From contig CAZIAP010000003.1 in assembly GCA_964537315.1 (NCBI GenBank), positions 75,919 through 139,918 on the forward strand: DNA of 64,000 nt, given 5' to 3'. The notes beneath the pieces were generated by a model, which was given only the letters and a program-made list of their open reading frames with translations, had not been told where the DNA came from and ran no database searches. The position numbers and the translations under genes are program-made. Shown in pieces: positions 45,597 to 58,005 of this stretch (positions are counted from its first letter, which is position 1; each line of letters starts with the position of its first letter). The DNA comes from an uncultured Gammaproteobacteria bacterium (GTDB taxonomy: Bacteria; Patescibacteriota; Microgenomatia; Levybacterales; GWA1-39-11).

Positions 45597-45659
45597 GCTT
45601 TTACTTTTGCGGGTATAGAAAATGCCTGCACTGTGTTTTACAGCGCAGGCTGTAATAGA

Positions 45660-46136
45660 TTATCGGTGTTCATCGCTTACAAAGGAGAATTGATGCTTAG
45701 CTTGGACTTTTCGTCCGCTGATGCCTCCGGCAAACTTAGAATTTCTGTATCTCTTACGGATATCCGAAAATTCTTTACTGGCTTCACGCCCGAGTTTATA
45801 GTAGCGTCTTTTTTCCTGACGTACTTCAAGATCTCCTTCCTCATCAGGGATCACAGCCCATGCCTTTCGGACAGAAAGCTGTACTCCATTAATGGTCATC
45901 TTGACCGGATTTTGAGATGGGTCCCGTACTGTTATCCAGTCAGGAAGGTTATCCCAGGAATATTCACTGAAATCTTCCTTCGTCCAGCTCACAACAATCC
46001 GCGAGTCAAGTACAACCACCTGTTTGAAGTCAATCTGCTCACTCACAGACTTGATCCTCTTTCCCGATAAAAATCGTTGGCATCGGCAAGTTCCGATACC
46101 ACCCAAAATACTTTTCAATTTCAGATGGTATAGCAA
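45660..46136 (-). CDS. hypothetical protein (up to 158 aa; start uncertain)
   Basis: Chosen over the fully overlapping plus-strand ORF 45633..46070 because its sequence is less skewed and it is co-oriented with the tRNA/ABC-F genes. Confidence 0.4.
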   Translation of the reverse strand: MLYHLKLKSILGGIGTCRCQRFLSGKRIKSVSEQIDFKQVVVLDSRIVVSWTKEDFSEYSWDNLPDWITVRDPSQNPVKMTINGVQLSVRKAWAVIPDEEGDLEVRQEKRRYYKLGREASKEFSDIRKRYRNSKFAGGISGRKVQAKHQFSFVSDEHR

Positions 46137-46199
46137 CTATGTGGGATTGTATCAAATACTCAAAGAGAGGACAAGCAAAAGTGAGGTGATAATTGTATG

Positions 46200-46272
46200 T
46201 ACCGATGGAGAGAGTCGAACTCTCAGTCTTACCCTTAGGACGGGTCTGCTTTATCCATTAAGCTATAACAGC
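46200..46272 (-). tRNA. tRNA-Arg(CCT)-like gene with a weak acceptor stem (divergent copy or pseudogene)
   Basis: Reverse complement: D-arm GCTT-AATGGATA-AAGC, anticodon arm GACCC-GTCCTAA-GGGTA, T-arm GAGAG-TTCGACT-CTCTC. Only 5 of 7 acceptor pairs (GCTGTTA vs CATCGGT), two of them G-U. Confidence 0.5.
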
Positions 46273-46312: not shown

Positions 46313-47794
46313 TTATATTGCTGTGACAGTATCGATCAGCTCAGGAATCCAGAATTGAATTCTGTTTTCCGGAAGTAAAAGTGCTCGATTAGGTTGTAGC
46401 TCTTCTACAAACTCGGGGGTGTGGCTCACAAAAAGCATAGCGCCAGTATAGCTTTTTAAGGCATCTAAAATAATACGTTGTGAGAGTACATCAAGATAAG
46501 TTGTTGGTTCATCTAATATGAGCAAGTTAAAATTTTGTAGCATAAGCATTGCTATGGAAAGTCTTGTTTTTTCACCACCAGATAATGTGCCTACTTTTTG
46601 ATAAATGCGAGGTCCGGGAAAGTTGAACTTTGTCATAACAGGGCGGATTGCCTGCTCAGGGAGGTCTGAGACCTTCTGTACATTCTCGACAATAGTTTTA
46701 TCGAAATCAAAGGTTTCAAACTCTTGTGAATAGTATCCAATTTTTAGATTCTCATCACGTTTAACCTCTCCTGCATCGGGTGATAGTCTGCCCATAAGAA
46801 TTTTGATAAACGTGCTTTTTCCGGCACCGTTAGGCCCAATTAAAGCTATACGTTCTCCTCGGACAATCGAAAGAGAAATATCAGCAAGCACCATATCGTA
46901 GTCGTACATTTTAACAATGTTGGAAGCCTTGATCGGTATTTCTCCTACGGGGTGTGGGGTAGGTAAGATAATTTTTGTACGTTTAATTTCTTTTGGTAGT
47001 TCCGGAAGTGACTCTTTGAGATTTTCTATTCTCTTGCGTAACATTGTGCGTTGTCTGACGCCTTTTTTTGATTTATTGCGAGACATTTTTCGTAGACCTT
47101 CTTCCATGTGCTTAATGTGCTTTTGCTCATTGATGATTTTACGTTTTTCCAGCGCATCTTTTTCAGCCTTTAATGCAAGATATTTTGTGTAGTTTCCGGT
47201 GTATTCTTCAAGTTTATGCGTGATTGGATTGAGAGCGAGCACTTTGTTGATGCGAGCGTCTAGTAACGGGAGATCATGTGAAATTACAATCAATGTTTTC
47301 GGATATTGTCCGAGAAAGTCCATTACCCATCTTTTTCCTGCAGTATCAAGAAAGTTGGTTGGTTCATCAAGCATCAGAATATCCGGTTCTTCTAACAAAG
47401 CACGCAGTAGAGCAAGTTTAGTCTTTTCTCCACCACTGCAGCTCTTGGGAATTGTTTGCAGATCAATATCGGTCATTTCAAGTTCACGGATCATCTCCAT
47501 TAACTCAAAATCGCTTACTTTTTTATGAGGGTCTACAAACTCTCTAACGGATGTGCATTTTTCTAAAACTGGATCGTGTTTGATTTCCTGAGGGACATAT
47601 CCAATTGTTCCAGTTACTTCAATCTTTCCGGCTGATGGAGCATCGATTCCTTGGAGGAGCTTAAGTAATGTTGATTTACCTGCTCCGTTTGGTCCTACGA
47701 GACCAATCTTTCGCTTATTACCAACAGTAAAACTGATATCGTCAAAAACAGGACCAAAGCCATATGAATATGATAAATTTTTAACGTGAATCAT
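46313..47794 (-). CDS. ABC-F family ATPase (two ABC domains joined by a charged linker; EttA/Uup/ARE-type)
   Basis: Two Walker A motifs (GPNGAGKST twice), two LSGGE signatures, and an inter-domain linker rich in K/R/E. Start taken at the internal ATG (MIHVKNLSYSYG). Confidence 0.85.
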   Translation of the reverse strand: MIHVKNLSYSYGFGPVFDDISFTVGNKRKIGLVGPNGAGKSTLLKLLQGIDAPSAGKIEVTGTIGYVPQEIKHDPVLEKCTSVREFVDPHKKVSDFELMEMIRELEMTDIDLQTIPKSCSGGEKTKLALLRALLEEPDILMLDEPTNFLDTAGKRWVMDFLGQYPKTLIVISHDLPLLDARINKVLALNPITHKLEEYTGNYTKYLALKAEKDALEKRKIINEQKHIKHMEEGLRKMSRNKSKKGVRQRTMLRKRIENLKESLPELPKEIKRTKIILPTPHPVGEIPIKASNIVKMYDYDMVLADISLSIVRGERIALIGPNGAGKSTFIKILMGRLSPDAGEVKRDENLKIGYYSQEFETFDFDKTIVENVQKVSDLPEQAIRPVMTKFNFPGPRIYQKVGTLSGGEKTRLSIAMLMLQNFNLLILDEPTTYLDVLSQRIILDALKSYTGAMLFVSHTPEFVEELQPNRALLLPENRIQFWIPELIDTVTAI

Positions 47795-47846
47795 GAGGTT
47801 GATTATCTCGAATTTAGGCGTAAATTGCAAAAAACAAGCAAGTGGG

Positions 47847-47919
47847 TAGCCCCGAGAGGAGTCGAACCTCCAACCTTTCCCTTAGGACGGGACTGCTCTA
47901 TCCATTGAGCTACGGGGCC
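47847..47919 (-). tRNA. tRNA-Arg(CCT): tRNA-Arg (anticodon CCT)
   Basis: Reverse complement: acceptor GGCCCCG/CGGGGCT (G1-U72), D-arm GCTC-AATGGATA-GAGC, anticodon arm GTCCC-GTCCTAA-GGGAA, T-arm GGAGG-TTCGACT-CCTCT. Confidence 0.8.
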
Positions 47920-48029
47920 ATATCTAGCCACAAGTATAGCATGAATGTAGTTTATAGTTAATGGTTATTGGTATGTGTTATATAAGATTTAACCATGATC
48001 TATGAACTAAAAACTATCAACTAACATTG

Positions 48030-48058
48030 TTGACTTCCTGTGAAGGATAAATTATCAT
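48030..48058 (+). promoter_or_regulatory. candidate promoter TTGACT-17-TATCAT upstream of the DsbA-like gene
   Basis: Hexamers with 17-nt spacing. This implies the real start of the next gene is the ATG at 48067. Confidence 0.4.
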
Positions 48059-48066
48059 ATTTGAGT

Positions 48067-48837
48067 ATGGCTGCAAAACAAACAAAAAAAGAGCTTAAGG
48101 AACTTCGTAAGATGGAAAAAGAACAGCAGACAAGAAGATCTGCTCTTGATAACTCTCCCCGAACTTCAGAAGATATGATGAAATGGATCACCTTAGGTGT
48201 AGTTGCTGTTATCGTAGTGGGCTTATTCGGATTTATTATTTATAATGCTCAGCAGAGAAAGTCAGAGCAGCAACAGGTTGCTAATACTCGTGTAGAGATT
48301 TCAGATACTGGCTGGTCTAAAGGTGCTACAGAGTCAGCTGAAGTAACATTGGTTGAATTTGCTGACTTTCAATGTCCGGGTTGTAAAGCAAATGTTCCTC
48401 TTATAGAACAGGCTCTTGAGGAGTATGGCGATCAACTTCGCATGGTATACAAACATTTTCCTTTGACATCTATACATCAGAATGCAAAACCAGCAGCACT
48501 TGCGGCCGAAGCAGCAGGGCGTCAGGAGATGTTCTGGGAGATGCATGATGTGTTATTTGATCGTCAGGCTGAATGGTCAGTACTGGGTGTAGGAGAAGCC
48601 CGGAATAAGTTTAGCGAATATGCACAGGAATTGGGCTTGAATGTGCAACAGTTTACTGCCGATATAAATAATCCAGAGCTTGAGCAAACAGTAAATGATC
48701 AGATGAACGAAGGTACGCAACTTGGCGTTATGGGAACTCCTACATTTTTCGTAAATGGAAAAAGAGTAGAGTCAGGCAGTTATTCTTTTCTACAGAGCGC
48801 GATTGAAGCAGAGCTTCAAGATGTAAACCAGGAGTAA
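48067..48837 (+). CDS. membrane-anchored thioredoxin-fold thiol:disulfide oxidoreductase (DsbA/BdbD-like)
   Basis: One TM helix, then FADFQCPGCKA CxxC active site and a DsbA-like fold. Confidence 0.8.
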   Translation: MAAKQTKKELKELRKMEKEQQTRRSALDNSPRTSEDMMKWITLGVVAVIVVGLFGFIIYNAQQRKSEQQQVANTRVEISDTGWSKGATESAEVTLVEFADFQCPGCKANVPLIEQALEEYGDQLRMVYKHFPLTSIHQNAKPAALAAEAAGRQEMFWEMHDVLFDRQAEWSVLGVGEARNKFSEYAQELGLNVQQFTADINNPELEQTVNDQMNEGTQLGVMGTPTFFVNGKRVESGSYSFLQSAIEAELQDVNQE

Positions 48838-48854: not shown

Positions 48855-49298
48855 ATGAAGAAGAAGTCTTCTAGTAACCCTCTCATAGATTTCATCGCTA
48901 AAAATTATCTTTCTTTCGGGTTTTTAATAACTGCAGTTGCGTCAATTGGAAGCTTTTTCTTTTCTGAAGTATTGAAACTTCCACCTTGTGATCTTTGTTG
49001 GTATCAGCGCGCATTGATGTATTCATTGGCTATTCTTTTTGGTATCGCGTTGTGGAAGAATGACAAAACAGTAGTACAGTACGTATTGCCGATATCAGTA
49101 ATCGGATTTTTAATTGCCATTTATCACAATATTTTGCAGTGGAGTCCGACACCGTTGCCTTGCACCACGGGTAGTGCTGTGAGTTGCGCAACAAAGCAGA
49201 TTGAAATTATGGGCTTTGATGCAATTCCTGTAATGTCAGGATTGGCATTTTTGACTATAATTTTGCTTTGTCTTGTCTACAGAAAGTACAGTAAGTAG
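48855..49298 (+). CDS. disulfide bond formation protein B (DsbB/BdbC-like)
   Basis: Four TM helices with a CDLCWYQR first-loop Cys pair and a second Cys pair (CTTGSAVSC). Confidence 0.75.
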   Translation: MKKKSSSNPLIDFIAKNYLSFGFLITAVASIGSFFFSEVLKLPPCDLCWYQRALMYSLAILFGIALWKNDKTVVQYVLPISVIGFLIAIYHNILQWSPTPLPCTTGSAVSCATKQIEIMGFDAIPVMSGLAFLTIILLCLVYRKYSK

Positions 49299-49304
49299 TA
49301 AGAA

Positions 49305-50039
49305 TTACTGTTGAGGGCGGTTAGGAATAGTAGCCACGTTTACTTCTACAGGGGCAGGTTTCCAATATGCACCTTGTTCAAGAATCTGAATCGAGTCTCC
49401 AACTTCTTGTGCAGATATAAATCCTCCTCCATTTGGAGCCTCTGGGTTTGGTTCTCCTGTAACAAATCCTTCTGTTTGAGGACTAAAGTTAACATAAGCT
49501 ACAACTTTATCATCTCGTCCAAAAGTGTCATCTACTACTAGATTTATTCGTAGCCATCTATCTCCATCTCCGTTAGCACGTTCGACATCTTCTCCTTTTA
49601 CCAAGACAGGGTTAGTAATGTCTACCCATTCAGAACCCTGAAGGTCAACTCCATTAATGGACTTGATTTTATCCGTGGGTATAGTTTCTCCGACCACTCT
49701 TCGGTTATCAATAAGCCGATCAGTTGTAGTGGGACGTTTTCTGATGTTTAGCTTGTTTTTTTGTAGAGTCTTTTCATCTTGTAGCTCGCCTAAATACAAT
49801 GTTACATTTCCTAGAAATATTTCAGATACAGGAGGATGATCTTCTATGCTTTCTCGTGCTTCAGCGCTAGATATAGGAGTTGAATCAGTATCTATTCTTT
49901 TTGATACTTCTTGCGTTCCTTTAAAACCTAATGCTACAGCTGCTGCTCCACCTAATCCCTTTAAAAATGTACGGCGGCTAATTTGTTTAGATTCTTGTTT
50001 TGGTTTCTCTTGCGAGGGGCCTTCGCCAAATTCTGACAT
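49305..50039 (-). CDS. secreted hypothetical protein with twin-arginine (Tat) signal peptide
   Basis: SRRTFLKGLGGAAAVALGF matches the S/T-RRxFLK Tat motif. Start set at the ATG at 50039; the track ORF begins at a TTG at 50108. Confidence 0.55.
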   Translation of the reverse strand: MSEFGEGPSQEKPKQESKQISRRTFLKGLGGAAAVALGFKGTQEVSKRIDTDSTPISSAEARESIEDHPPVSEIFLGNVTLYLGELQDEKTLQKNKLNIRKRPTTTDRLIDNRRVVGETIPTDKIKSINGVDLQGSEWVDITNPVLVKGEDVERANGDGDRWLRINLVVDDTFGRDDKVVAYVNFSPQTEGFVTGEPNPEAPNGGGFISAQEVGDSIQILEQGAYWKPAPVEVNVATIPNRPQQ

Positions 50040-50115
50040 AAAGCTATTGTGTATTAATGAAACAAGAATGTCAAGAATATTTGTAGTAAGGATCGGAAAT
50101 CCGTACAATATAACT

Positions 50116-50850
50116 ATGCATCGTCGTGAAATTATTAGGTTTTTAGCGTTCAGAACGCTTGGAAATTTTTTTATTTTGCTTACTCTTTATGGATTTTTTG
50201 CCACATTTGGTCCTGCAGTATATTACGAGGCAGTCTTTAAAATATCCAAGTTTAGGGGAGTAGAGTATGCAGTTGCGGAAACGACGGGAACCCGCACATT
50301 CGCAGATGTATTGGAGGAAAACAGAGGGTCTGTTCACCACGTTTCAGACTCCAGCCAAGGTCTTGCTAGTTCTGTTCTGAACGGGAATAAAAATCAGTTT
50401 CTAATGCCGAAGGATAAGAGATTTTCTTTACTGATCCCTAAAATCGGTGCAAGTGAGAAAGTGCATGAAAATGTAGATCCTTCAGATCAAGTTGCCTATA
50501 GCTCTGTCTTGAGAAATGGTGTGGCACATGCACAAGGAACGTCGTTCCCAGGCTATGGTGGGAACACGTATATCTTCGCCCACAGTACGGACAACTTTTG
50601 GAATGTAGGCAGGTATAATGCAGTTTTTTATCTATTAAAAGAGCTACAGCCGGGCGATGACATTACAGTAATTTTCATGGACGAAAGATTTGATTATGTA
50701 GTAACAGAGACTAAAGTTGTTGATGCAGATAATCTAGATTATTTAAGAGCAGATATAGGTCAAGGGGAGGTTTTGACACTTCAAACCTGTTGGCCACCAG
50801 GTACGACGTGGAAAAGGCTTTTAGTTTTAGCAAAACCAAAAGAGTTATAA
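50116..50850 (+). CDS. sortase family transpeptidase
   Basis: N-terminal TM anchor, catalytic His region (YIFAHS) and TLQTCWP active-site Cys motif. Start set at the ATG at 50116 to avoid the antisense overlap with the upstream gene. Confidence 0.75.
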   Translation: MHRREIIRFLAFRTLGNFFILLTLYGFFATFGPAVYYEAVFKISKFRGVEYAVAETTGTRTFADVLEENRGSVHHVSDSSQGLASSVLNGNKNQFLMPKDKRFSLLIPKIGASEKVHENVDPSDQVAYSSVLRNGVAHAQGTSFPGYGGNTYIFAHSTDNFWNVGRYNAVFYLLKELQPGDDITVIFMDERFDYVVTETKVVDADNLDYLRADIGQGEVLTLQTCWPPGTTWKRLLVLAKPKEL

Positions 50851-50911: not shown

Positions 50912-51646
50912 ATGGACTCAAAGAAATCATTTTCAACAGATAAAGCGCTTTCGTTTGGCTGGAATAGTGTTAAGAAAAATCCCATTATTATTCTATACTT
51001 TATGGTTGGAGTTGCTCTTCCGGCAATATCTAGCAGGATCCTATCGTTAGTCGCAGGCGATGATACAGTGATCAATCTTGCGATTCAAATCCTAGTACAA
51101 AGCTTATCTATAATATTTTCAATAGGATTAATTAGGGTAGCATTGAATGTGTACGATAACGTACCATTGAAAATTGAAAATCTGTATCAGGATTATAGAA
51201 GGGTTTTTGGATATTTTATAGCCAGTATGCTAGTTGGTTTGGGTGTTTTGGCAGTGTTTTTCCCATTTTTTATTATTCTTGGTATAGTTTTCTTCTCATT
51301 CCAGGATTATTTTTGGATTTTGATACTACCTGGATTACTTTCAGTTGTGGCAGCAGCCTATGTTGGTACGCGATGGAGCCTATGGTCATATGTTTTCCTT
51401 GATAAAGGAGTAGGTCCAATTGCTTCTGTGCAGGCGAGCTGGGAAATGACCAAAGGTAATGTGCTACGTCTGTTTCTCCTGTACATAGTACAGGGTCTAA
51501 TAATTATTTTGGGACTAATTGCATTGATTGTGGGTGTACTGGTTGCTATTCCCGTTGCATCACTCATGCTTGTATATGCTTATAAAATGCTTGATGGTAA
51601 AAAACCTGAGTCAGTATCTACACCACCTGCACCCGCAGTATCGTAG
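50912..51646 (+). CDS. polytopic membrane protein (244 aa), unknown function
   Basis: Six hydrophobic helices. Pro/Ala-rich C-terminal tail. Confidence 0.55.
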   Translation: MDSKKSFSTDKALSFGWNSVKKNPIIILYFMVGVALPAISSRILSLVAGDDTVINLAIQILVQSLSIIFSIGLIRVALNVYDNVPLKIENLYQDYRRVFGYFIASMLVGLGVLAVFFPFFIILGIVFFSFQDYFWILILPGLLSVVAAAYVGTRWSLWSYVFLDKGVGPIASVQASWEMTKGNVLRLFLLYIVQGLIIILGLIALIVGVLVAIPVASLMLVYAYKMLDGKKPESVSTPPAPAVS

Positions 51647-51794
51647 AGCACATAGGCTTTCTCATGTAATTGGAATTTTTGTGCCTATATTAAGATAAAA
51701 ATTTTTCTTGCTTTTACTTTTTTATTATTCATTTCATTTTCATCTTTGATTATTACCCGATAATATCTTCCAATCTCTTTGCGCAAGAGGAATC

Positions 51795-53243
51795 TTGGAC
51801 AAAGAGGAGGTGAGACAAGGGATGTTTAAAAAATATGCAGTCATAACTGTGATGTTTGTTGCAGGACTATTCGTAACAAACGGAGCATACGCAGATACAA
51901 CCGTAGATACAGGAGACGCTGACGCAGACATTAATGTAATAACTGAAGCCGGTATCAATAAGCTTGATCTGAGCGGGTTTAACTTTGGTAAAACAGATGT
52001 TGAAATCTCAGATAACGGCGCATTCTCGGATAATTTCGTTTTTGTTAACAACAATAACAATATAACGGTAAATCAAACAAATGATACTACCGTTAATAAT
52101 GATATTTCCGTAAATGCTAATACCGGAGGTAATACAGTATTTGGCAATAGACGAGGGGATGTAGATATTCGCACTGGTGATGCCACTGCTGATGTAAACG
52201 TAGAAACCAAAGCCGGGTATAACGAACTGAAGTTGGGTTGTGATAATTGTAACAACTCCACATCAGTAGAAGTATCCGACAATGGAAGGTTTTCTGATAA
52301 TCAAGTCAGGATCAATAATGACAATGATCTTGATATAAATCAAGACAATGATACTGATGTAGACAACGATGTTGATGTTAATCTCAACACCGGAGGAGTA
52401 TCTGTATTCGGAGGATTTGGTCATGGAGGCTATGATCGAGATTGGAAAGACTTTGACTACGACAAGGACAAGTACGATCGAGACTGGAAAGACTTTGATT
52501 ATGACAAAGACAAGTACAGTCGAGACTACAAAGATCATAGAAAATCTTATGACTATGATAAAAAATATGATCACTACCGAAAAGATTATGATCACAACAA
52601 AAGTAAAAAGTACTATTATGATGATAAAAAAGATAACCGATATTGGCCGTATAGGCTAAATAAATTTGACGGTTATGATCATCGGGACTATGACTTTGAC
52701 AAAAAATATGATCATGATCGAAAAGACGATCATAGAAAGTACAAAGACTCAGATGACAAACGCTACTATAAAAAGCGGGCATATGACTTTGATCATCATA
52801 GGTATGCAAAATATCATGATTATCCAAAATTTAGAAAAGATACAAAATACAAGCCGTATAGGTATAACTTCGTAAAGTATCACGATTTTGATAAGAAAGA
52901 TCATGATAAAAAAGATGATGACAAGTATAAAAAGTCAAGACACGACTTCACAAAATTTAGTGATAAGAACTACAAACCGTATAGGTTTGCAAAAAATTAC
53001 TATCACAAGAATGTGAAGAAGTATAGCAAGTACGACCATGATTGGGACAAATATCGTTTTACCAAAAATGATAAAAAGTCCAACTATTACACAAAGGACA
53101 AACACAAAAAGTACTACTACCCGGTACGTTTTGTGAAAAAATTTGATTATGGTCGAAAAGATAATTGCTATCAGTCATCGAGCTTTAAGCATGGGAACTT
53201 CCGATTTCCCGGACAGAGAGGGTATAGTGTTCTGCACATTTAA
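51795..53243 (+). CDS. secreted repeat protein: signal peptide, two about 95-aa Asp/Asn-rich modules, about 300-aa Tyr/Asp/Lys/His/Arg-rich tandem-repeat tail
   Basis: MFKKYAVITVMFVAGLFVTNGAYA signal. Duplicated TGDA(D/T)AD(I/V)NV...NTGG..VFG modules. Tail made of units like RDWKDFDYDKDKYD, with the DNA repeated at 52430-52520. Confidence 0.7.
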   Translation: MDKEEVRQGMFKKYAVITVMFVAGLFVTNGAYADTTVDTGDADADINVITEAGINKLDLSGFNFGKTDVEISDNGAFSDNFVFVNNNNNITVNQTNDTTVNNDISVNANTGGNTVFGNRRGDVDIRTGDATADVNVETKAGYNELKLGCDNCNNSTSVEVSDNGRFSDNQVRINNDNDLDINQDNDTDVDNDVDVNLNTGGVSVFGGFGHGGYDRDWKDFDYDKDKYDRDWKDFDYDKDKYSRDYKDHRKSYDYDKKYDHYRKDYDHNKSKKYYYDDKKDNRYWPYRLNKFDGYDHRDYDFDKKYDHDRKDDHRKYKDSDDKRYYKKRAYDFDHHRYAKYHDYPKFRKDTKYKPYRYNFVKYHDFDKKDHDKKDDDKYKKSRHDFTKFSDKNYKPYRFAKNYYHKNVKKYSKYDHDWDKYRFTKNDKKSNYYTKDKHKKYYYPVRFVKKFDYGRKDNCYQSSSFKHGNFRFPGQRGYSVLHI

Positions 53244-53275
53244 TTAGTCAGGGTGTAGAACATAATTTCTAGTTG

Positions 53276-53305
53276 AACCCCGCAGACGTGCGGGGTTCAT
53301 CATTT
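53276..53305 (+). terminator. probable terminator after the repeat-protein gene
   Basis: AACCCCGCA-GACG-TGCGGGGTT hairpin followed by CATCATTTTCTT (interrupted T-run). Confidence 0.5.
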
Positions 53306-53321
53306 TCTTACCTAAACCTTA

Positions 53322-53783
53322 GTGAAGATATATAGAATGGTTAGTATGAAAACAAGTGTGTTCTTTGGTGTCATGACAATACTTTTAACTCTACTTACCC
53401 CACTTAGCGAGGCCAGTGCAGAGTCAGTATCCACGAGCACTACCACTTCTAAATCTCACACTCGTGTGCAAATTACTACAAATGGGGAGACAAAAGTATT
53501 TGAGAGCAACGGAGAAAGTATTGATTATAAATCTGAAGACGGAAAGACCAGAGTAAGGATAAACTCAAATGGTCAGAATGTACAAAGTAACGCGCAAGAC
53601 ACATTTGATTCGGTCAAGCAAGAAGTGCAGGGAGTAGTAGAAGAAAACAAAAAAGAGCTTGAAAAAAAGGTGGAAGAACGTAAGCGAGAAACTCAGAATA
53701 AGGTAACTAACGAAGTTGAAAAACAAAGCATAGGGATTATTGAGGTAATTAAAAATTTCTTCGCAGGCTTATTCAATTTCTAA
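53322..53783 (+). CDS. secreted hypothetical protein with C-terminal charged coiled-coil
   Basis: Signal peptide VFFGVMTILLTLLTPLSEASA. Lys/Glu heptad-like tail. Confidence 0.55.
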   Translation: MKIYRMVSMKTSVFFGVMTILLTLLTPLSEASAESVSTSTTTSKSHTRVQITTNGETKVFESNGESIDYKSEDGKTRVRINSNGQNVQSNAQDTFDSVKQEVQGVVEENKKELEKKVEERKRETQNKVTNEVEKQSIGIIEVIKNFFAGLFNF

Positions 53784-55036: not shown

Positions 55037-56836
55037 ATGCGTAAAAAAGTACGAATAGGTCCTGCATTTTCAGACTCAATCTCAACAGGTAAAGTACAGA
55101 GAAGAAAGGAGTCAAAAAGTATTTTGAGTCCTGAAGTCCTTTCATTACTTCCTCTTATATGTCTTGTACTAGTTTCAGGATTTTTTTTAGTACGACTCTT
55201 TTATCTGCAAGTCATACGAAGTGATTACTACCGAGCTTTGTCTGATGAAAATAGACTCAGAACATTAATAATTCCTGCGCCTCGCGGTATTTTGTTTGAT
55301 CGTAATGGGGAACCGCTTGTAAATAACACACCTGCGTTCAAGGTGCTTGATAATGAACAAAAAGTGCAGTTTCTTGGTCAAGAAGATGCCTTAGAGCGTA
55401 TTGCCAAGGGAGAAGAAATTATCAGTGATATTCAGAGAAAATATATTCATGGTGATGTTTTCGCACATGCATTGGGATATATCGGACAGATTTCAGAAGA
55501 TGAGATTGCACAGCACAAGTTTCAAGGATATGCATTAACTGATTTTGTCGGTAAGTTTGGGCTTGAGGCGCAATATGAGTCGGTTCTTCATGGGAAAAAT
55601 GGAAGAGAGCTTTATGAAGTTGATGCTGTGGGTGAGAAAGTGAGATTTTTGGGAAAAGATGCGCCTGTTGCAGGAAAAAATATACATACTACTTTGGATA
55701 TTGAATTGCAAAAGGCGGTACACGAAGCAATGAAGGAAGCATCTAAAGGTGCAGTTGTAGTATCAGACCCTCGTGATGGAGGAATACTGGCAATATATTC
55801 AAAGCCAAGTTTTGATCCCAACTTATTTACACATAACAAGGAGTATGAACCTGTTGGCGATTACAAAAGTGTAGAAGAAATACTTACTGATGGAGAGAAT
55901 CAGCCACTATTGAACCGTGCAATTGGGGGTGTGTATCCGCCTGGATCAACATATAAGTTGGTTAGTGCGATTGCAGCTCTTGAAACAGGAGCAATGAAGA
56001 GAGATACCATTGTCGAAGACACAGGTATTTTAAGAGTAGGTGCGTTTTCATTTGGAAATTGGTATTACTTGCAGCATGGAAGAAAAGATGGTGATGTAGA
56101 TGTAGTAAAGGCAATAGAGCGGTCAAATGATATTTATTTTTATAAAGCAGCAGAAGCAACGGGTATAAAAAGTCTTGCCGACTGGTCAAAAAAGTTTGGA
56201 CTTGGACAAAAACTATCTATTGATTTATCAGGAGAGCAAGCGGGAACAGTACCTGACGAGGCATGGAAACAAAAAGTAATTGGAGAACCGTGGTATCTGG
56301 GCGACAACTATAATACAGGAATCGGACAGGGATACTTACTAGCTACACCACTGCAGGTTAATATGTTTACAGTGCCTTTTGCCAACGGAGGGACGCTTTA
56401 TCAGCCTCATTTAGTAAAAGATCAAAAAAAAGAGATCAGGTCTGACTTTATGAAACAGGATCATATTGACGCAATTAGAGAGGGTATGCGGCGCAGCTGT
56501 CATCCTGATGGCGGAGTAGCTTTCCCATTTTTTGACTTTAAGGTAACCAACGAGATGCTGTCAATCGATGGTAGGAACTTTACTGAGGTGGCTGCAACCT
56601 CGCTGAGCGGGGCAAGCCAAAGCGCACAGATGACTAAAGTGACTGTAGGGTGTAAAACAGGTACATCCGAGTCAGGAGGAGGAAGGTTACCACATGCGTG
56701 GATTACCGTGATTGCACCATACTATGATCCTGAAGTAGTAGTAACAGTACTTGTCGAAACAGCGGGCGAAGGATCGGCAGTAGCAGCTCCTATCGCCAAA
56801 GAAATTTTAGAGGCGTATTTTGAGGGGAAGGATTAG
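55037..56836 (+). CDS. mrdA: penicillin-binding protein 2 (class B transpeptidase)
   Basis: STYK (SxxK), SND (SxN) and KTGTS (KTG) motifs, N-terminal TM and dimerisation domain. Start at the ATG at 55037 just after the mreD stop. Confidence 0.9.
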   Translation: MRKKVRIGPAFSDSISTGKVQRRKESKSILSPEVLSLLPLICLVLVSGFFLVRLFYLQVIRSDYYRALSDENRLRTLIIPAPRGILFDRNGEPLVNNTPAFKVLDNEQKVQFLGQEDALERIAKGEEIISDIQRKYIHGDVFAHALGYIGQISEDEIAQHKFQGYALTDFVGKFGLEAQYESVLHGKNGRELYEVDAVGEKVRFLGKDAPVAGKNIHTTLDIELQKAVHEAMKEASKGAVVVSDPRDGGILAIYSKPSFDPNLFTHNKEYEPVGDYKSVEEILTDGENQPLLNRAIGGVYPPGSTYKLVSAIAALETGAMKRDTIVEDTGILRVGAFSFGNWYYLQHGRKDGDVDVVKAIERSNDIYFYKAAEATGIKSLADWSKKFGLGQKLSIDLSGEQAGTVPDEAWKQKVIGEPWYLGDNYNTGIGQGYLLATPLQVNMFTVPFANGGTLYQPHLVKDQKKEIRSDFMKQDHIDAIREGMRRSCHPDGGVAFPFFDFKVTNEMLSIDGRNFTEVAATSLSGASQSAQMTKVTVGCKTGTSESGGGRLPHAWITVIAPYYDPEVVVTVLVETAGEGSAVAAPIAKEILEAYFEGKD

Positions 56837-58005
56837 TTTGTAAATGAAAATTCTGAGGTTGTAAGCGTAGAGACTATAGCATTAACTTTAGCATAATATA
56901 TACTTGCATTGTTACCAACGCTAATATTATATATATCTTGAGTATCTAGAATAAAAACTTCTAAAGAATCTCCTGATTGACTTCCACCATGTGTAACTGT
57001 ATAAATCGACTTACCATTTTTTTCTACCCGTTGAACATTGGGACCAAGGCCTTCATACAGTTTATATAGTGATGTTTCAGTAAAAATATTTAGTGGGATA
57101 TTCACAAATTTGGAGATTGACAAAGTTTCAGCAAAGTAAGGATCTACTTTGTAACCAACAGGATCGATAGTTTGTAAATGACCTAACTGAACCATGTATT
57201 CAGGATTAGCTTGAATAGGAAAAGGTGATTTTTTAATTACAGGATTTTTAGCTTCTTGAACAATCCAGTCTGGATCGTATTTAAAACTTATTTCGTATTC
57301 CTGGTTTGAGTATGATTTCCAGTTTGATACATCTATTTGTTGTTTTTCGAACGAAATTACTGGAGGGTTAAATAAATTAAAACTTAATAGTATTTTATTA
57401 AAAATTTCATCAGTAATATTGCCGCTTCCGGTTGGAGTAACATCAGCATGCCATACATGTAAATATGTTCCATAAAGTATTCTGGTAAATATATCTTTAG
57501 TGTTTTTTTCCCTAGAAGTAACACTTGTTTTCAGAGCTGTATATCCTCCTAATTCTGTATATGTAAACTCATGATCTTGGGATACTTGTAAATGGTGTAT
57601 GCCATAATCTTGAAGTGTCATATCTTCATCTGAATGTGTTTCAATAACTATGTAATCACCATCAGGTACTTGTTTTCGCAAGATTATTAAGTTTGTTTTT
57701 TCTTCTAATGAAAAATCAGATGGGTATTTAAACTCAAAACCAAATTCTTTATTCCTATACGTTTTCCAGTCTGCAGTAGGATCACCTACTGTAGTTGTTG
57801 TTTTCGACATTGCAGGTGTGGAAGAGGAGACTTTTCTCTCTTTGCCTAAATAAATAGCTACTGATGATACTAACGCGATGGTAAGTAGAGCAATGAACAA
57901 AACAAACGCAAGTTTAGGGATGTTATGGTGAGGTTCTGAAGTTTGAGTGGGCGCATTGAAGCTATCTAAATCTGTCGATGGTTTTATTTGATTATAATCT
58001 TCCAT
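56833..58005 (-). CDS. N-terminally anchored extracellular protein with internal tandem duplication
   Basis: Signal-anchor HHNIPKLAFVLFIALLTIAL. Two related modules begin DWKTYRNKEFGFEFKYP and NWKSYSNQEYEISFKYD. Confidence 0.6.
   Translation of the reverse strand: MEDYNQIKPSTDLDSFNAPTQTSEPHHNIPKLAFVLFIALLTIALVSSVAIYLGKERKVSSSTPAMSKTTTTVGDPTADWKTYRNKEFGFEFKYPSDFSLEEKTNLIILRKQVPDGDYIVIETHSDEDMTLQDYGIHHLQVSQDHEFTYTELGGYTALKTSVTSREKNTKDIFTRILYGTYLHVWHADVTPTGSGNITDEIFNKILLSFNLFNPPVISFEKQQIDVSNWKSYSNQEYEISFKYDPDWIVQEAKNPVIKKSPFPIQANPEYMVQLGHLQTIDPVGYKVDPYFAETLSISKFVNIPLNIFTETSLYKLYEGLGPNVQRVEKNGKSIYTVTHGGSQSGDSLEVFILDTQDIYNISVGNNASIYYAKVNAIVSTLTTSEFSFTN

Follow-up and report, generated by a model that had tools for sequence, protein, structure and literature searches.

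A secreted repeat protein with a basic, tyrosine-rich tail

The 64,000-nt stretch of DNA analysed here (contig CAZIAP010000003.1, positions 75,919 to 139,918; hereafter the window) carries, between a sortase gene and mreC, an open reading frame (ORF) for a secreted protein with a long tail rich in tyrosine, lysine and aspartate. The gene order in this part of the window is truB (minus strand), a DsbA-like gene, dsbB, an ORF with a twin-arginine translocation (TAT) signal (minus strand), the sortase gene, a DUF975-like gene, the gene in question, a gene for a coiled-coil protein, mreC, mreD and pbp2. We assign the product, hereafter the window protein, to an unnamed family of acidic, all-beta repeat proteins that is large and apparently restricted to the Candidate Phyla Radiation (CPR), and regard it as an accessory member that is secreted and not sortase-anchored. 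Its features are listed below; L numbers denote loci of other genomes and P numbers denote family proteins.

51822-53243, plus strand: coding sequence, 473 amino acids (aa) plus stop; GGAGG at 51805-51809; opening MFKKYAV common to the ortholog at locus L002
51822-51893, plus strand: signal peptide, aa 1-24, by inspection (n-region MFKK, hydrophobic core, AYA/D cleavage motif)
51909-52145, plus strand: repeat unit 1 (aa 30-108), in which a TGDA hairpin precedes the core SDNGAFSDN...NQTND..V.N.I.V.ANTGGN
52173-52412, plus strand: repeat unit 2, aa 118-197, a TGDA hairpin, Cys-containing linker and module core, 59% identical to unit 1
52239-52250, plus strand: CDNC, the vicinal Cys pair of the inter-module linker, a pair kept across the family
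52425-53240, plus strand: tail of 272 aa, a giant insertion in the loop of the last module, at a site common to P0003, P0017, P0029, P0050, P0087, P0100, P0109 and others
52434-52534, plus strand: DNA tandem repeat found with Tandem Repeats Finder (TRF), 42 bp (14 codons, DRDWKDFDYDKDKY) x 2.4, in frame, 86% matches
52641-52658, plus strand: motif 1, YWPYRL (aa 274-279), within the kept block DKKDNRYWPYRLNKFDGY; kept in L002
52848-52865, plus strand: motif 2, YKPYRY (aa 343-348); kept in L002
52971-52988, plus strand: motif 3, YKPYRF (aa 384-389); kept in L002
53115-53132, plus strand: motif 4, YYPVRF (aa 432-437); kept in L002, and YYPV[KR]F-like in P0087 and P0100
53166-53168, plus strand: Cys449 (NCYQ), a third, unpaired Cys, kept in the ortholog as PCYQ
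53193-53240, plus strand: GNFRFPGQRGYSVLHI, read by eye, against P0003, P0029, P0050, P0100, P0113 and L002, as what is left of the family's closing hairpin in degenerate form

A preliminary description of this DNA had reported an uninterrupted plus-strand ORF at 51795-53243, and the frame is indeed open throughout, from a mechanical TTG start at 51795 that would give 482 aa. We take the ATG at 51822 as the more likely start because GGAGG lies 12 nt before it and MFKKYAV is also found in the ORF of the L002 ortholog. Spurious antisense ORFs had been noted over the repeats, and they are present together with alternative-frame ORFs. We rejected the antisense ORFs as genuine genes because 69% of tail codons are NAN (middle A), so that the antisense strand reads NTN and two antisense frames of the tail contain just 4-5 stops in 816 nt. 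An exact look-up of the window protein, in three start variants, found no match in a large protein collection.

The N-terminus, MFKKYAVITVMFVAGLFVTNGAYA followed by Asp at the cleavage site, resembles a Sec-type signal peptide by inspection, and the modules start directly after it. This bears out the secretion signal originally proposed. It is identical to that of the L002 ortholog at 23 of 24 positions, and comparable AxA signal peptides occur in family relatives. A SipW-type signal peptide was considered and rejected, there being no TIGR04088 match.

The two module units are identical at 47 of 80 positions (59%; E-value 1e-19). The duplication of Asp/Asn-rich modules claimed at the outset therefore stands, but its period is 88 aa and not about 95. 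Asp makes up 15% and Asn 19% of the modules, and the N-terminal part has a net charge of -23 and an isoelectric point (pI) of 4.05, against a pI of 8.2 for the whole mature protein. The Cys positions of the linker (GCDNC, aa 139-143) are near-invariant in a 126-sequence family alignment, and the CDNC pair probably forms a disulfide. Because vicinal Cys pairs of this kind are kept in inter-module linkers, dependence on DsbA and DsbB is plausible. An AlphaFold2 model of the modules is all-beta, with a predicted local distance difference test (pLDDT) score of 67. Its structural neighbours are all weak and non-significant; they are beta-solenoids, including CsgA and FapC (both among the top matches) and RsaA, with RTX repeats and Ca-dependent beta-helices also among them.

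The tail is compositionally extreme and largely non-repetitive

Six residues, Lys (21.3%), Asp (19.9%), Tyr (16.9%), Arg (8.1%), Phe (6.2%) and His (6.2%), account for 79% of the 272-aa tail as compared with 27% across long ORFs of the window, confirming the extreme composition that had been described for the C-terminal region. Ser contributes 4%, and Glu and Met are absent. The tail has a net charge of +26, a pI of 9.48 and a grand average of hydropathy of -2.26; it is strongly hydrophilic and, with no predicted secondary structure and a pLDDT below 50 in a single-sequence model, probably disordered. A single-sequence AlphaFold2 model of the full protein (pLDDT 38) was uninformative.

The preliminary description had called this region a 300-aa tandem-repeat tail, a label that fits neither its length nor its structure. 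TRF placed the near-identical DNA repeat reported at about 52430-52520 at 52434-52534 (period 42, 2.4 copies), which is the one substantial array, and the remaining match in the tail is a weak 15-bp x 2.5 array. The rest of the tail is not a tandem array: it consists of biased composition and four short kept motifs. A homology search with the tail alone among 5.8 billion proteins returned 564 word-sharing candidates, none of them significant.

Such a composition could serve several purposes. The Asp/His/Tyr clusters of the tail (YDH, DHD, DFD) and the Asn/Asp ladders of the modules might chelate Ca2+, Zn2+ or Fe or bind minerals, and in line with this the tripeptides YDH and DFD occur 5 times each where shuffles predict about 0.6, the tail holds 17 His and 54 Asp, and an RTX Ca-binding protein adjoins the ortholog; the Asp and Asn content of the modules and their weak likeness to RTX repeats and Ca-dependent beta-helices point the same way. 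Against it, 80 Lys and Arg residues in the tail would repel cations, and 6% His is modest next to true His-rich metal binders. No known metal-binding motif or Pfam family was recognised in the protein, and the GGxGxDxUx nonapeptide repeats of RTX proteins (HemolysinCabind) gave no Pfam match to it. We consider metal or mineral binding improbable as the main role.

A second reading is suggested by spore-coat proteins. CotC and CotU are rich in Asp too, and a tail of 17% Tyr, 21% Lys and 20% Asp resembles them. The window protein might then be an oxidatively cross-linked matrix or coat protein, its Tyr tail a substrate for dityrosine or other covalent links that harden a layer; the conserved, unpaired Cys449 could add a disulfide link, although an intermolecular disulfide through it is speculation. 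CotC, CotU and CotG of Bacillus subtilis share with the window protein an extreme richness in Tyr and Lys, and all are built into a surface layer as structural components (PMC7944565, PMC4130616). CotC and CotU are tyrosine-rich outer-coat proteins that form higher-mass forms, dityrosine having been suggested as a coat cross-link (PMC7944565), and CotG, like the tail, is positively charged and random-coil, with repeats (PMC4130616). The likeness to CotG-like proteins drawn earlier thus holds for composition, but it does not extend to homology: none is detectable with the Cot proteins, no significant similarity lies outside the family (the 564 candidates of the tail query included), and the window protein is exported by Sec and has its tail fused to a beta-rich repeat domain. 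The Ser-rich phospho-repeats of CotG are missing from a tail with so little Ser. Cot proteins, moreover, are small products of the mother cell that carry no signal peptide, and sporulation is not known from CPR bacteria. There are no CotE/CotH or sporulation genes among the annotated window neighbours, and no CotH-type kinase, laccase, peroxidase or transglutaminase among the annotated genes at 31.9-35.6, 37-57 and 58-64 kb of the window. On balance, a cross-linked coat protein seems unlikely.

The modules define a large family without a name

The combination of domains had been thought not to correspond to a described family, and our searches agree. The window protein had no match in Pfam (E ≤ 0.1), NCBIfam or PDB sequences, ten relatives had no Pfam match at E ≤ 1, and a profile of 126 family sequences had no match among PDB sequences. 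A literature search for a described CPR family of tyrosine-rich or sortase-linked surface proteins likewise returned nothing relevant.

The modules themselves have abundant relatives. A homology search with them found five, and a profile built from those five recovered 2,527 clusters (at 50% identity) at E ≤ 1e-3, 562 of which reached E ≤ 1e-30; a second profile search gave 565 proteins at E ≤ 1e-10. The window protein matches the family profiles (hmmsearch) with E-values of 5.9e-80 for A1, in which it is included, and 9.4e-47 for A4, the broader 126-sequence profile. A typical member consists of a signal peptide and four modules of ~90 aa, ~415 aa in total, with the consensus ...SGNGAxSDNxVxVxxxNxTxVxQxNxAxVxNxVxxxANTGxNxAxxNTGGDVxIxTGDAxxxVxVxNxxNxNxAxVxxCxC.... 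Canonical members (n=235) are very acidic, with a median net charge of -39 and a median pI of 4.05. All source annotations read 'hypothetical protein', as for MBI4067644.1 of Candidatus Gottesmanbacteria, and the organisms, where named, are all CPR (Gottesmanbacteria, Nomurabacteria).

With these canonical proteins the window protein shares the signal peptide, two full signature modules and the linker Cys pair. Several features set it apart. Only two modules are present where four are usual, the first module being deleted; it carries a 272-aa basic Tyr/Lys/Asp insertion where a short NTGxN-NTGG loop is usual; its closing hairpin is degenerate; the mature protein has a pI of 8.2 rather than about 4; and its gene lies outside the cluster of three paralogs and a small sortase described below. 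Secreted repeat proteins with a low-complexity adhesive or structural region are known, and it is the Tyr/Lys/Asp polyampholyte insertion that is unusual here.

The tail occupies a recurrent insertion site in the last module

Tyrosine-rich segments recur in the family. A 60-aa window with at least 15% Tyr is present in 12 of 267 family proteins, and P0100, P0113 and P0150 hold similar, less Tyr-dense inserts. In 12 of 13 Tyr-rich cases inspected by eye, the insert is framed by the NTGxN turn of the last module on one side and by the closing hairpin (GGNTGG.V.I.TGDA...V.I.N...N[YF]L.[IL], then the stop) on the other. The junction in the window protein (...NLNTGGVSVFGGFGHGGYD) is like that of P0109 (...GFGGFGHSGHGDYG). 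By these comparisons, the tail is a giant insertion at this recurrent site. The closing hairpin is intact in P0050, P0003 and P0004; in the window protein only the 16 aa GNFRFPGQRGYSVLHI, which we read as a degenerate remnant, stand in its place.

The most informative relative is P0050, encoded at locus L064 in the same syntenic slot. It aligns with aa 28-291 of the window protein, that is, both modules and the tail up to the first PYR motif (E-value 5e-40), and repeat unit 1 falls on the end of its module 1 plus its module 2. Because P0050 aligns through both modules and has one more N-terminal module, as well as an intact closing hairpin, we infer that a first module was deleted from the window protein and that the TGDA element at its mature N-terminus is the leftover.

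Among relatives, insert length spans about 60 to about 320 aa. An aromatic-x-Pro-[VYIL] motif occurs in 6 of 14 insert-bearing members, at a density ~60x that of canonical members. The insertion is an evolutionarily dynamic elaboration of the module scaffold, one that could be a natural adhesive or matrix element.

An ortholog preserves the architecture and four motifs of the tail

A genome scan anchored on the neighbouring sortase yielded 62 loci, mostly from Candidatus Levybacteria/Levyibacteriota and Gottesmanbacteria, which assigns the window to the Microgenomates group within the CPR. The closest to the window is L002, where the sortase is 74% identical. Its ortholog has a near-identical signal peptide and two modules, and the tail, at 319 aa, likewise finishes with LHI before the stop. 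The gene is genuine and under constraint: pN and pS, the proportions of nonsynonymous and synonymous differences, are 0.156 and 0.658 in the modules and 0.31 and 0.78 in the tail. The composition of the L002 tail (K 20.7%, D 19.1%, Y 14.1%, R 7.2%, H 6.3%) is close to that of the window protein. Both proteins carry four Y-x-P-[YV]-[RKL]-[FYL] motifs at matching alignment positions (aa 274, 343, 384 and 432 of the window protein), a number reached in 0 of 20,000 shuffles of either tail. Further landmarks kept in L002 are DKKDNRYxPYRLNxFDGY, YHDFxKKDH, Cys449 and GNFR.

The proximal end of the tail behaves differently. L002 has its own in-frame duplication there (102 bp x 2.0, L002:18037-18237), and we regard the 42-bp and 102-bp duplications, both with periods that are multiples of three, as independent and recent. 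Because two lineages acquired independent duplications at this end, we consider it a slippage hot-spot that may be polymorphic in length.

These observations bear on whether the tail is largely a neutral, slippage-driven expansion of low complexity in a permissive loop, or even an assembly artefact. Such an origin would account for the two in-frame duplications, for a tail that diverges faster than the modules (51% against 73% identity) and for the variable insert length among relatives. It would also agree with the rarity of close orthologs: two metagenome scans for closer ones, with the ortholog alignment and with a back-translated DKKDNRYxPYRLN pattern verified to match both window and L002, found none, and the exact protein is missing from the large collection. 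Yet the pN of the tail is well under its pS, composition is near-constant between the orthologs, the four motifs hold their positions, as do a Cys and the C-terminal LHI, and the frame is open over 272 codons. Neutral expansion is therefore distinctly unlikely. An assembly artefact, a worry raised in the preliminary description, is excluded for the architecture because the independent L002 assembly reproduces it; repeat collapse could at most have altered how many copies of the 42-bp unit there are.

The gene lies in a variable slot of a conserved backbone

The neighbours of the gene in the window are as follows.

48040-48837, plus strand: DsbA-like thioredoxin-fold protein, a backbone gene
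48855-49298, plus strand: DsbB, a backbone gene
49305-50108, minus strand: TAT-signal ORF (SRRTFLKGLGG; PF10518, 25.9 bits, cutoff 22.7), between dsbB and the sortase gene
50116-50850 (start near 50116), plus strand: sortase of 244 aa with an N-terminal transmembrane (TM) segment, part of the conserved backbone and not a demonstrated partner
50912-51646, plus strand: polytopic membrane protein, matched weakly by DUF975 (22.9 bits, cutoff 34.8), a variable-island gene
51737-51764, plus strand: promoter-like site TTTTCA-16-GATAAT, a consensus match only, in the 175-bp gap after the DUF975-like gene
53274-53309, plus strand: strong intrinsic-terminator-like hairpin (53274-53299, 11 pairs, 7 of them G-C) and then a T-run, a consensus match only
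53322-53783, plus strand: 'p151', a small secreted protein with a coiled coil, whose gene separates the family gene from mreC in the window, L002 and L003

The gene had been described as the last of a co-oriented run of DsbA-like, DsbB, sortase and membrane-protein genes. Those neighbours are present, but the minus-strand TAT-signal ORF interrupts the run. The further proposal of a dedicated envelope-assembly module is not supported by comparison across the 62 loci, in which dsbA-dsbB-sortase...mreC-mreD-pbp2 forms a conserved housekeeping backbone in about 20 Levybacteria genomes and the gene falls in a hypervariable slot. The stretch from sortase to mreC is empty in L025, L031 and L063 and holds unrelated genes in about 15 other loci; many loci have DUF975-like and SipW-like genes there. 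Besides the window, a family member lies within 10 kb of the sortase in only 4 of the 62 loci (L001/L004, L002 and L003; 3 distinct contigs). An operon with the sortase gene was considered and rejected, given the promoter- and terminator-like sites that the gene has of its own and the variable slot.

The window protein had also been put forward as possible cargo of that module. In its strongest form, this would make it a covalently wall-anchored substrate folded by the adjacent DsbA/DsbB, and there is circumstantial support: sortase, DsbA and DsbB genes lie less than 4 kb upstream, the same arrangement is found in L001, L002 and L064, family members are sortase-linked elsewhere, and a CxxC-like pair is conserved. 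However, although it is encoded 1 kb downstream of a sortase gene, the protein has none of the parts of a sorting signal: its hydrophilic C-terminus, ending in ...GQRGYSVLHI, has no LPXTG-like motif, hydrophobic segment or basic tail. A scan of ORFs with a relaxed pattern and hydropathy found no LPXTG-like sorting signal in the window or within 10 kb in the 62 sortase-anchored loci. Together with the loci where the backbone does without a family gene, the minus-strand gene that breaks the run and the promoter- and terminator-like sites, this makes covalent anchoring by the adjacent sortase very improbable.

In the slot at L001, P0004 is a family member without an insert. P0004 (L001:10001-10630) has Arg at many Asp/Asn positions, for example RVDFRSDRNTNITQRND...NIRSNTGRN, and is a charge-shifted version within an otherwise very acidic family.

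In the closest relatives the slot holds genes reminiscent of a Bacillus biofilm operon.

L002:14349-17232, L003:4589-7522 and L064:5295-7699: Bacillus-biofilm-like island in the slot between sortase and mreC

The orthologous genes at L002 and L064 lie at or near the end of this matrix-like island. Its products are a Peptidase_M73/TasA-like protein whose signal peptide is of the SipW type (TIGR04088, 31 bits; cutoff 19), a signal peptidase that is likewise SipW-type (archaeal-type; TIGR02228, 98-106 bits; cutoff 52) and a protein with a lamin-tail domain (LTD). L002 alone adds an RTX-repeat protein, and L064 has a small 133-aa family member, with a 138-aa counterpart in L003. The arrangement resembles the Bacillus TasA/SipW operon in that the family gene at L002 and L064 directly follows a cluster with a TasA/camelysin-like protein and a SipW-type signal peptidase. 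The window protein itself differs, having neither a Peptidase_M73/TasA match nor a SipW-type signal peptide, and the window has no such island.

Canonical members are encoded with anchored paralogs and a small sortase

For five canonical members with four modules, all on long contigs, we examined the gene context. A cluster that includes two paralogs and a small sortase is common to four of these five loci.

L067:4991-11553, L069:4647-11374, L070:6254-12397 and L071:5544-12634: canonical cluster

The first gene encodes a TM protein of about 200-270 aa. The second, which L070 lacks, encodes a 74-89-aa protein that is DUF2292 in L069 and L071. The third encodes the free four-module protein. The fourth is a family paralog of about 730-790 aa with an INLAW-hydrophobic-basic end, a TM anchor, and the fifth a paralog of about 370-415 aa that ends in LPVTG or LPATG, a TM segment and LRYHSGRSP in 3 of 4 loci. 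The sixth is a small sortase of 172-197 aa. The fifth gene's product resembles LPXTG proteins of Gram-positive bacteria in having the motif, a TM segment and a basic tail beside a sortase gene; no pilin-type domains (Cna-B, FctA) were detected.

By its make-up, the cluster resembles a dedicated surface assembly that depends on a sortase and consists of proteins of the unnamed family. Since canonical members are encoded with an anchored paralog, an LPxTG paralog and a small sortase, they most likely build a cell-surface structure. The sortase association that had been proposed for this protein therefore holds at the level of the family (4 of 5 loci) but not for this gene and this sortase.

We judge this family-level cluster to be more interesting than the tail. 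To our knowledge, little is known of CPR surface molecules beyond type IV pili, and the gene leads to a very large family for which neither Pfam nor NCBIfam has a model. Because its canonical members are clustered with membrane-anchored and LPxTG paralogs and a small sortase, the family is a promising candidate for a major surface structure of CPR cells. CPR bacteria (Patescibacteria) are ultra-small, and all cultivated members are attached to host cells (PMC11623550).

A possible role as an adhesive or matrix subunit

The structural element suggested in the preliminary description remains the best reading of the gene, and we infer a structural, matrix-like role. More specifically, we tentatively favour a non-covalently attached adhesive or matrix subunit with docking modules and a tail that acts as glue, a proposal that we hold with somewhat less than even confidence. 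After loss of the first module, the loop ahead of the last module's closing hairpin has expanded into the basic 272-aa segment. In this proposal, in-frame slippage at the proximal end of the tail changes its length between lineages. The acidic modules (-23, pI 4.05) would dock onto, or co-assemble with, the surface structure of the family. The tail would supply a multivalent electrostatic and cation-pi/aromatic 'glue' that holds the protein on, or bridges, anionic surfaces, be they acidic family proteins, the cell's own wall or the wall of the host. Mussel foot proteins and sticker-spacer polyampholytes offer a parallel, being extracellular, hydrophilic and predicted to be disordered, with high Tyr and Lys/Arg. 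This analogy is purely compositional, and the high Asp content makes the tail of the window protein a polyampholyte rather than a polycation. The charge split between acidic modules and basic tail makes the binding hypothesis directly testable.

Several points weigh against this proposal. The role of the tail is read from its composition and charge alone, a partner structure in this genome is assumed, and the co-assembly of free and anchored paralogs is by analogy to CsgA/CsgB. The canonical three-paralog cluster is not in the 64-kb window, where the protein is the sole family member, and the TasA/SipW island is absent from the window as well. Inserts of other Tyr-rich members are near neutral (net -3 to +8), so that electrostatic glue may be specific to this lineage, Tyr enrichment being the general feature.

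The curli analogy can be carried further. The family resembles CsgA/CsgB curli and Pseudomonas FapC in being secreted, in its imperfect repeats with conserved Asn/Gln/Gly at alternating sites and in the all-beta module model; as with CsgA and CsgB, free and anchored paralogs are found side by side. No Curlin_rpt or Fap repeat signature was matched in Pfam by the window protein (E ≤ 0.1) or by ten relatives (E ≤ 1). By this analogy, the GNGAxSDN/TGDA proteins could form an undescribed fibre or sheath on the CPR surface, nucleated on the LPxTG paralog via the small sortase and assembled in a beta-solenoid or functional-amyloid-like manner, as in CsgB/CsgA. Tyr-rich variants would then be adhesive or cross-linking subunits, at the tip or in the matrix, with which an epibiont sticks to its host or to its own matrix. 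As a complete scheme this is unlikely.

Further observations on the locus

The TAT-signal ORF overlaps an artificially long upstream extension of the sortase ORF, and L001 has a VTT/DedA gene at this place. In the p151 proteins (window 53322-53783; L002:19070-19525; L003:8270-8737), a conserved TTNGETKVFESNGE..Y.S segment is accompanied by a charged region of coiled-coil-like character, and the C-terminus is hydrophobic; their sole domain match is a weak one, to T7_gp14. Right after pbp2, on the opposite strand, lies a gene for a PsbP_2-like secreted or membrane protein, both in the window (56833-58005, minus strand) and in L001 (L001:13715-14869, minus strand).

Upstream of the backbone, two tRNA-Arg(CCT) genes at 46199-46272 and 47843-47920 (both minus strand) flank an ABC-F ATPase gene (46313-47830), and overlapping ORFs on opposite strands occupy 45633-46136, just upstream of this stretch.

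Finally, many records titled 'uncultured Gammaproteobacteria bacterium' (L002, L004-L006, L008, L010 and others) have the Levybacteria-type dsbA-dsbB-sortase-mreC synteny, with sortases 50-74% identical; these titles look like placeholder or mistaken taxonomy.

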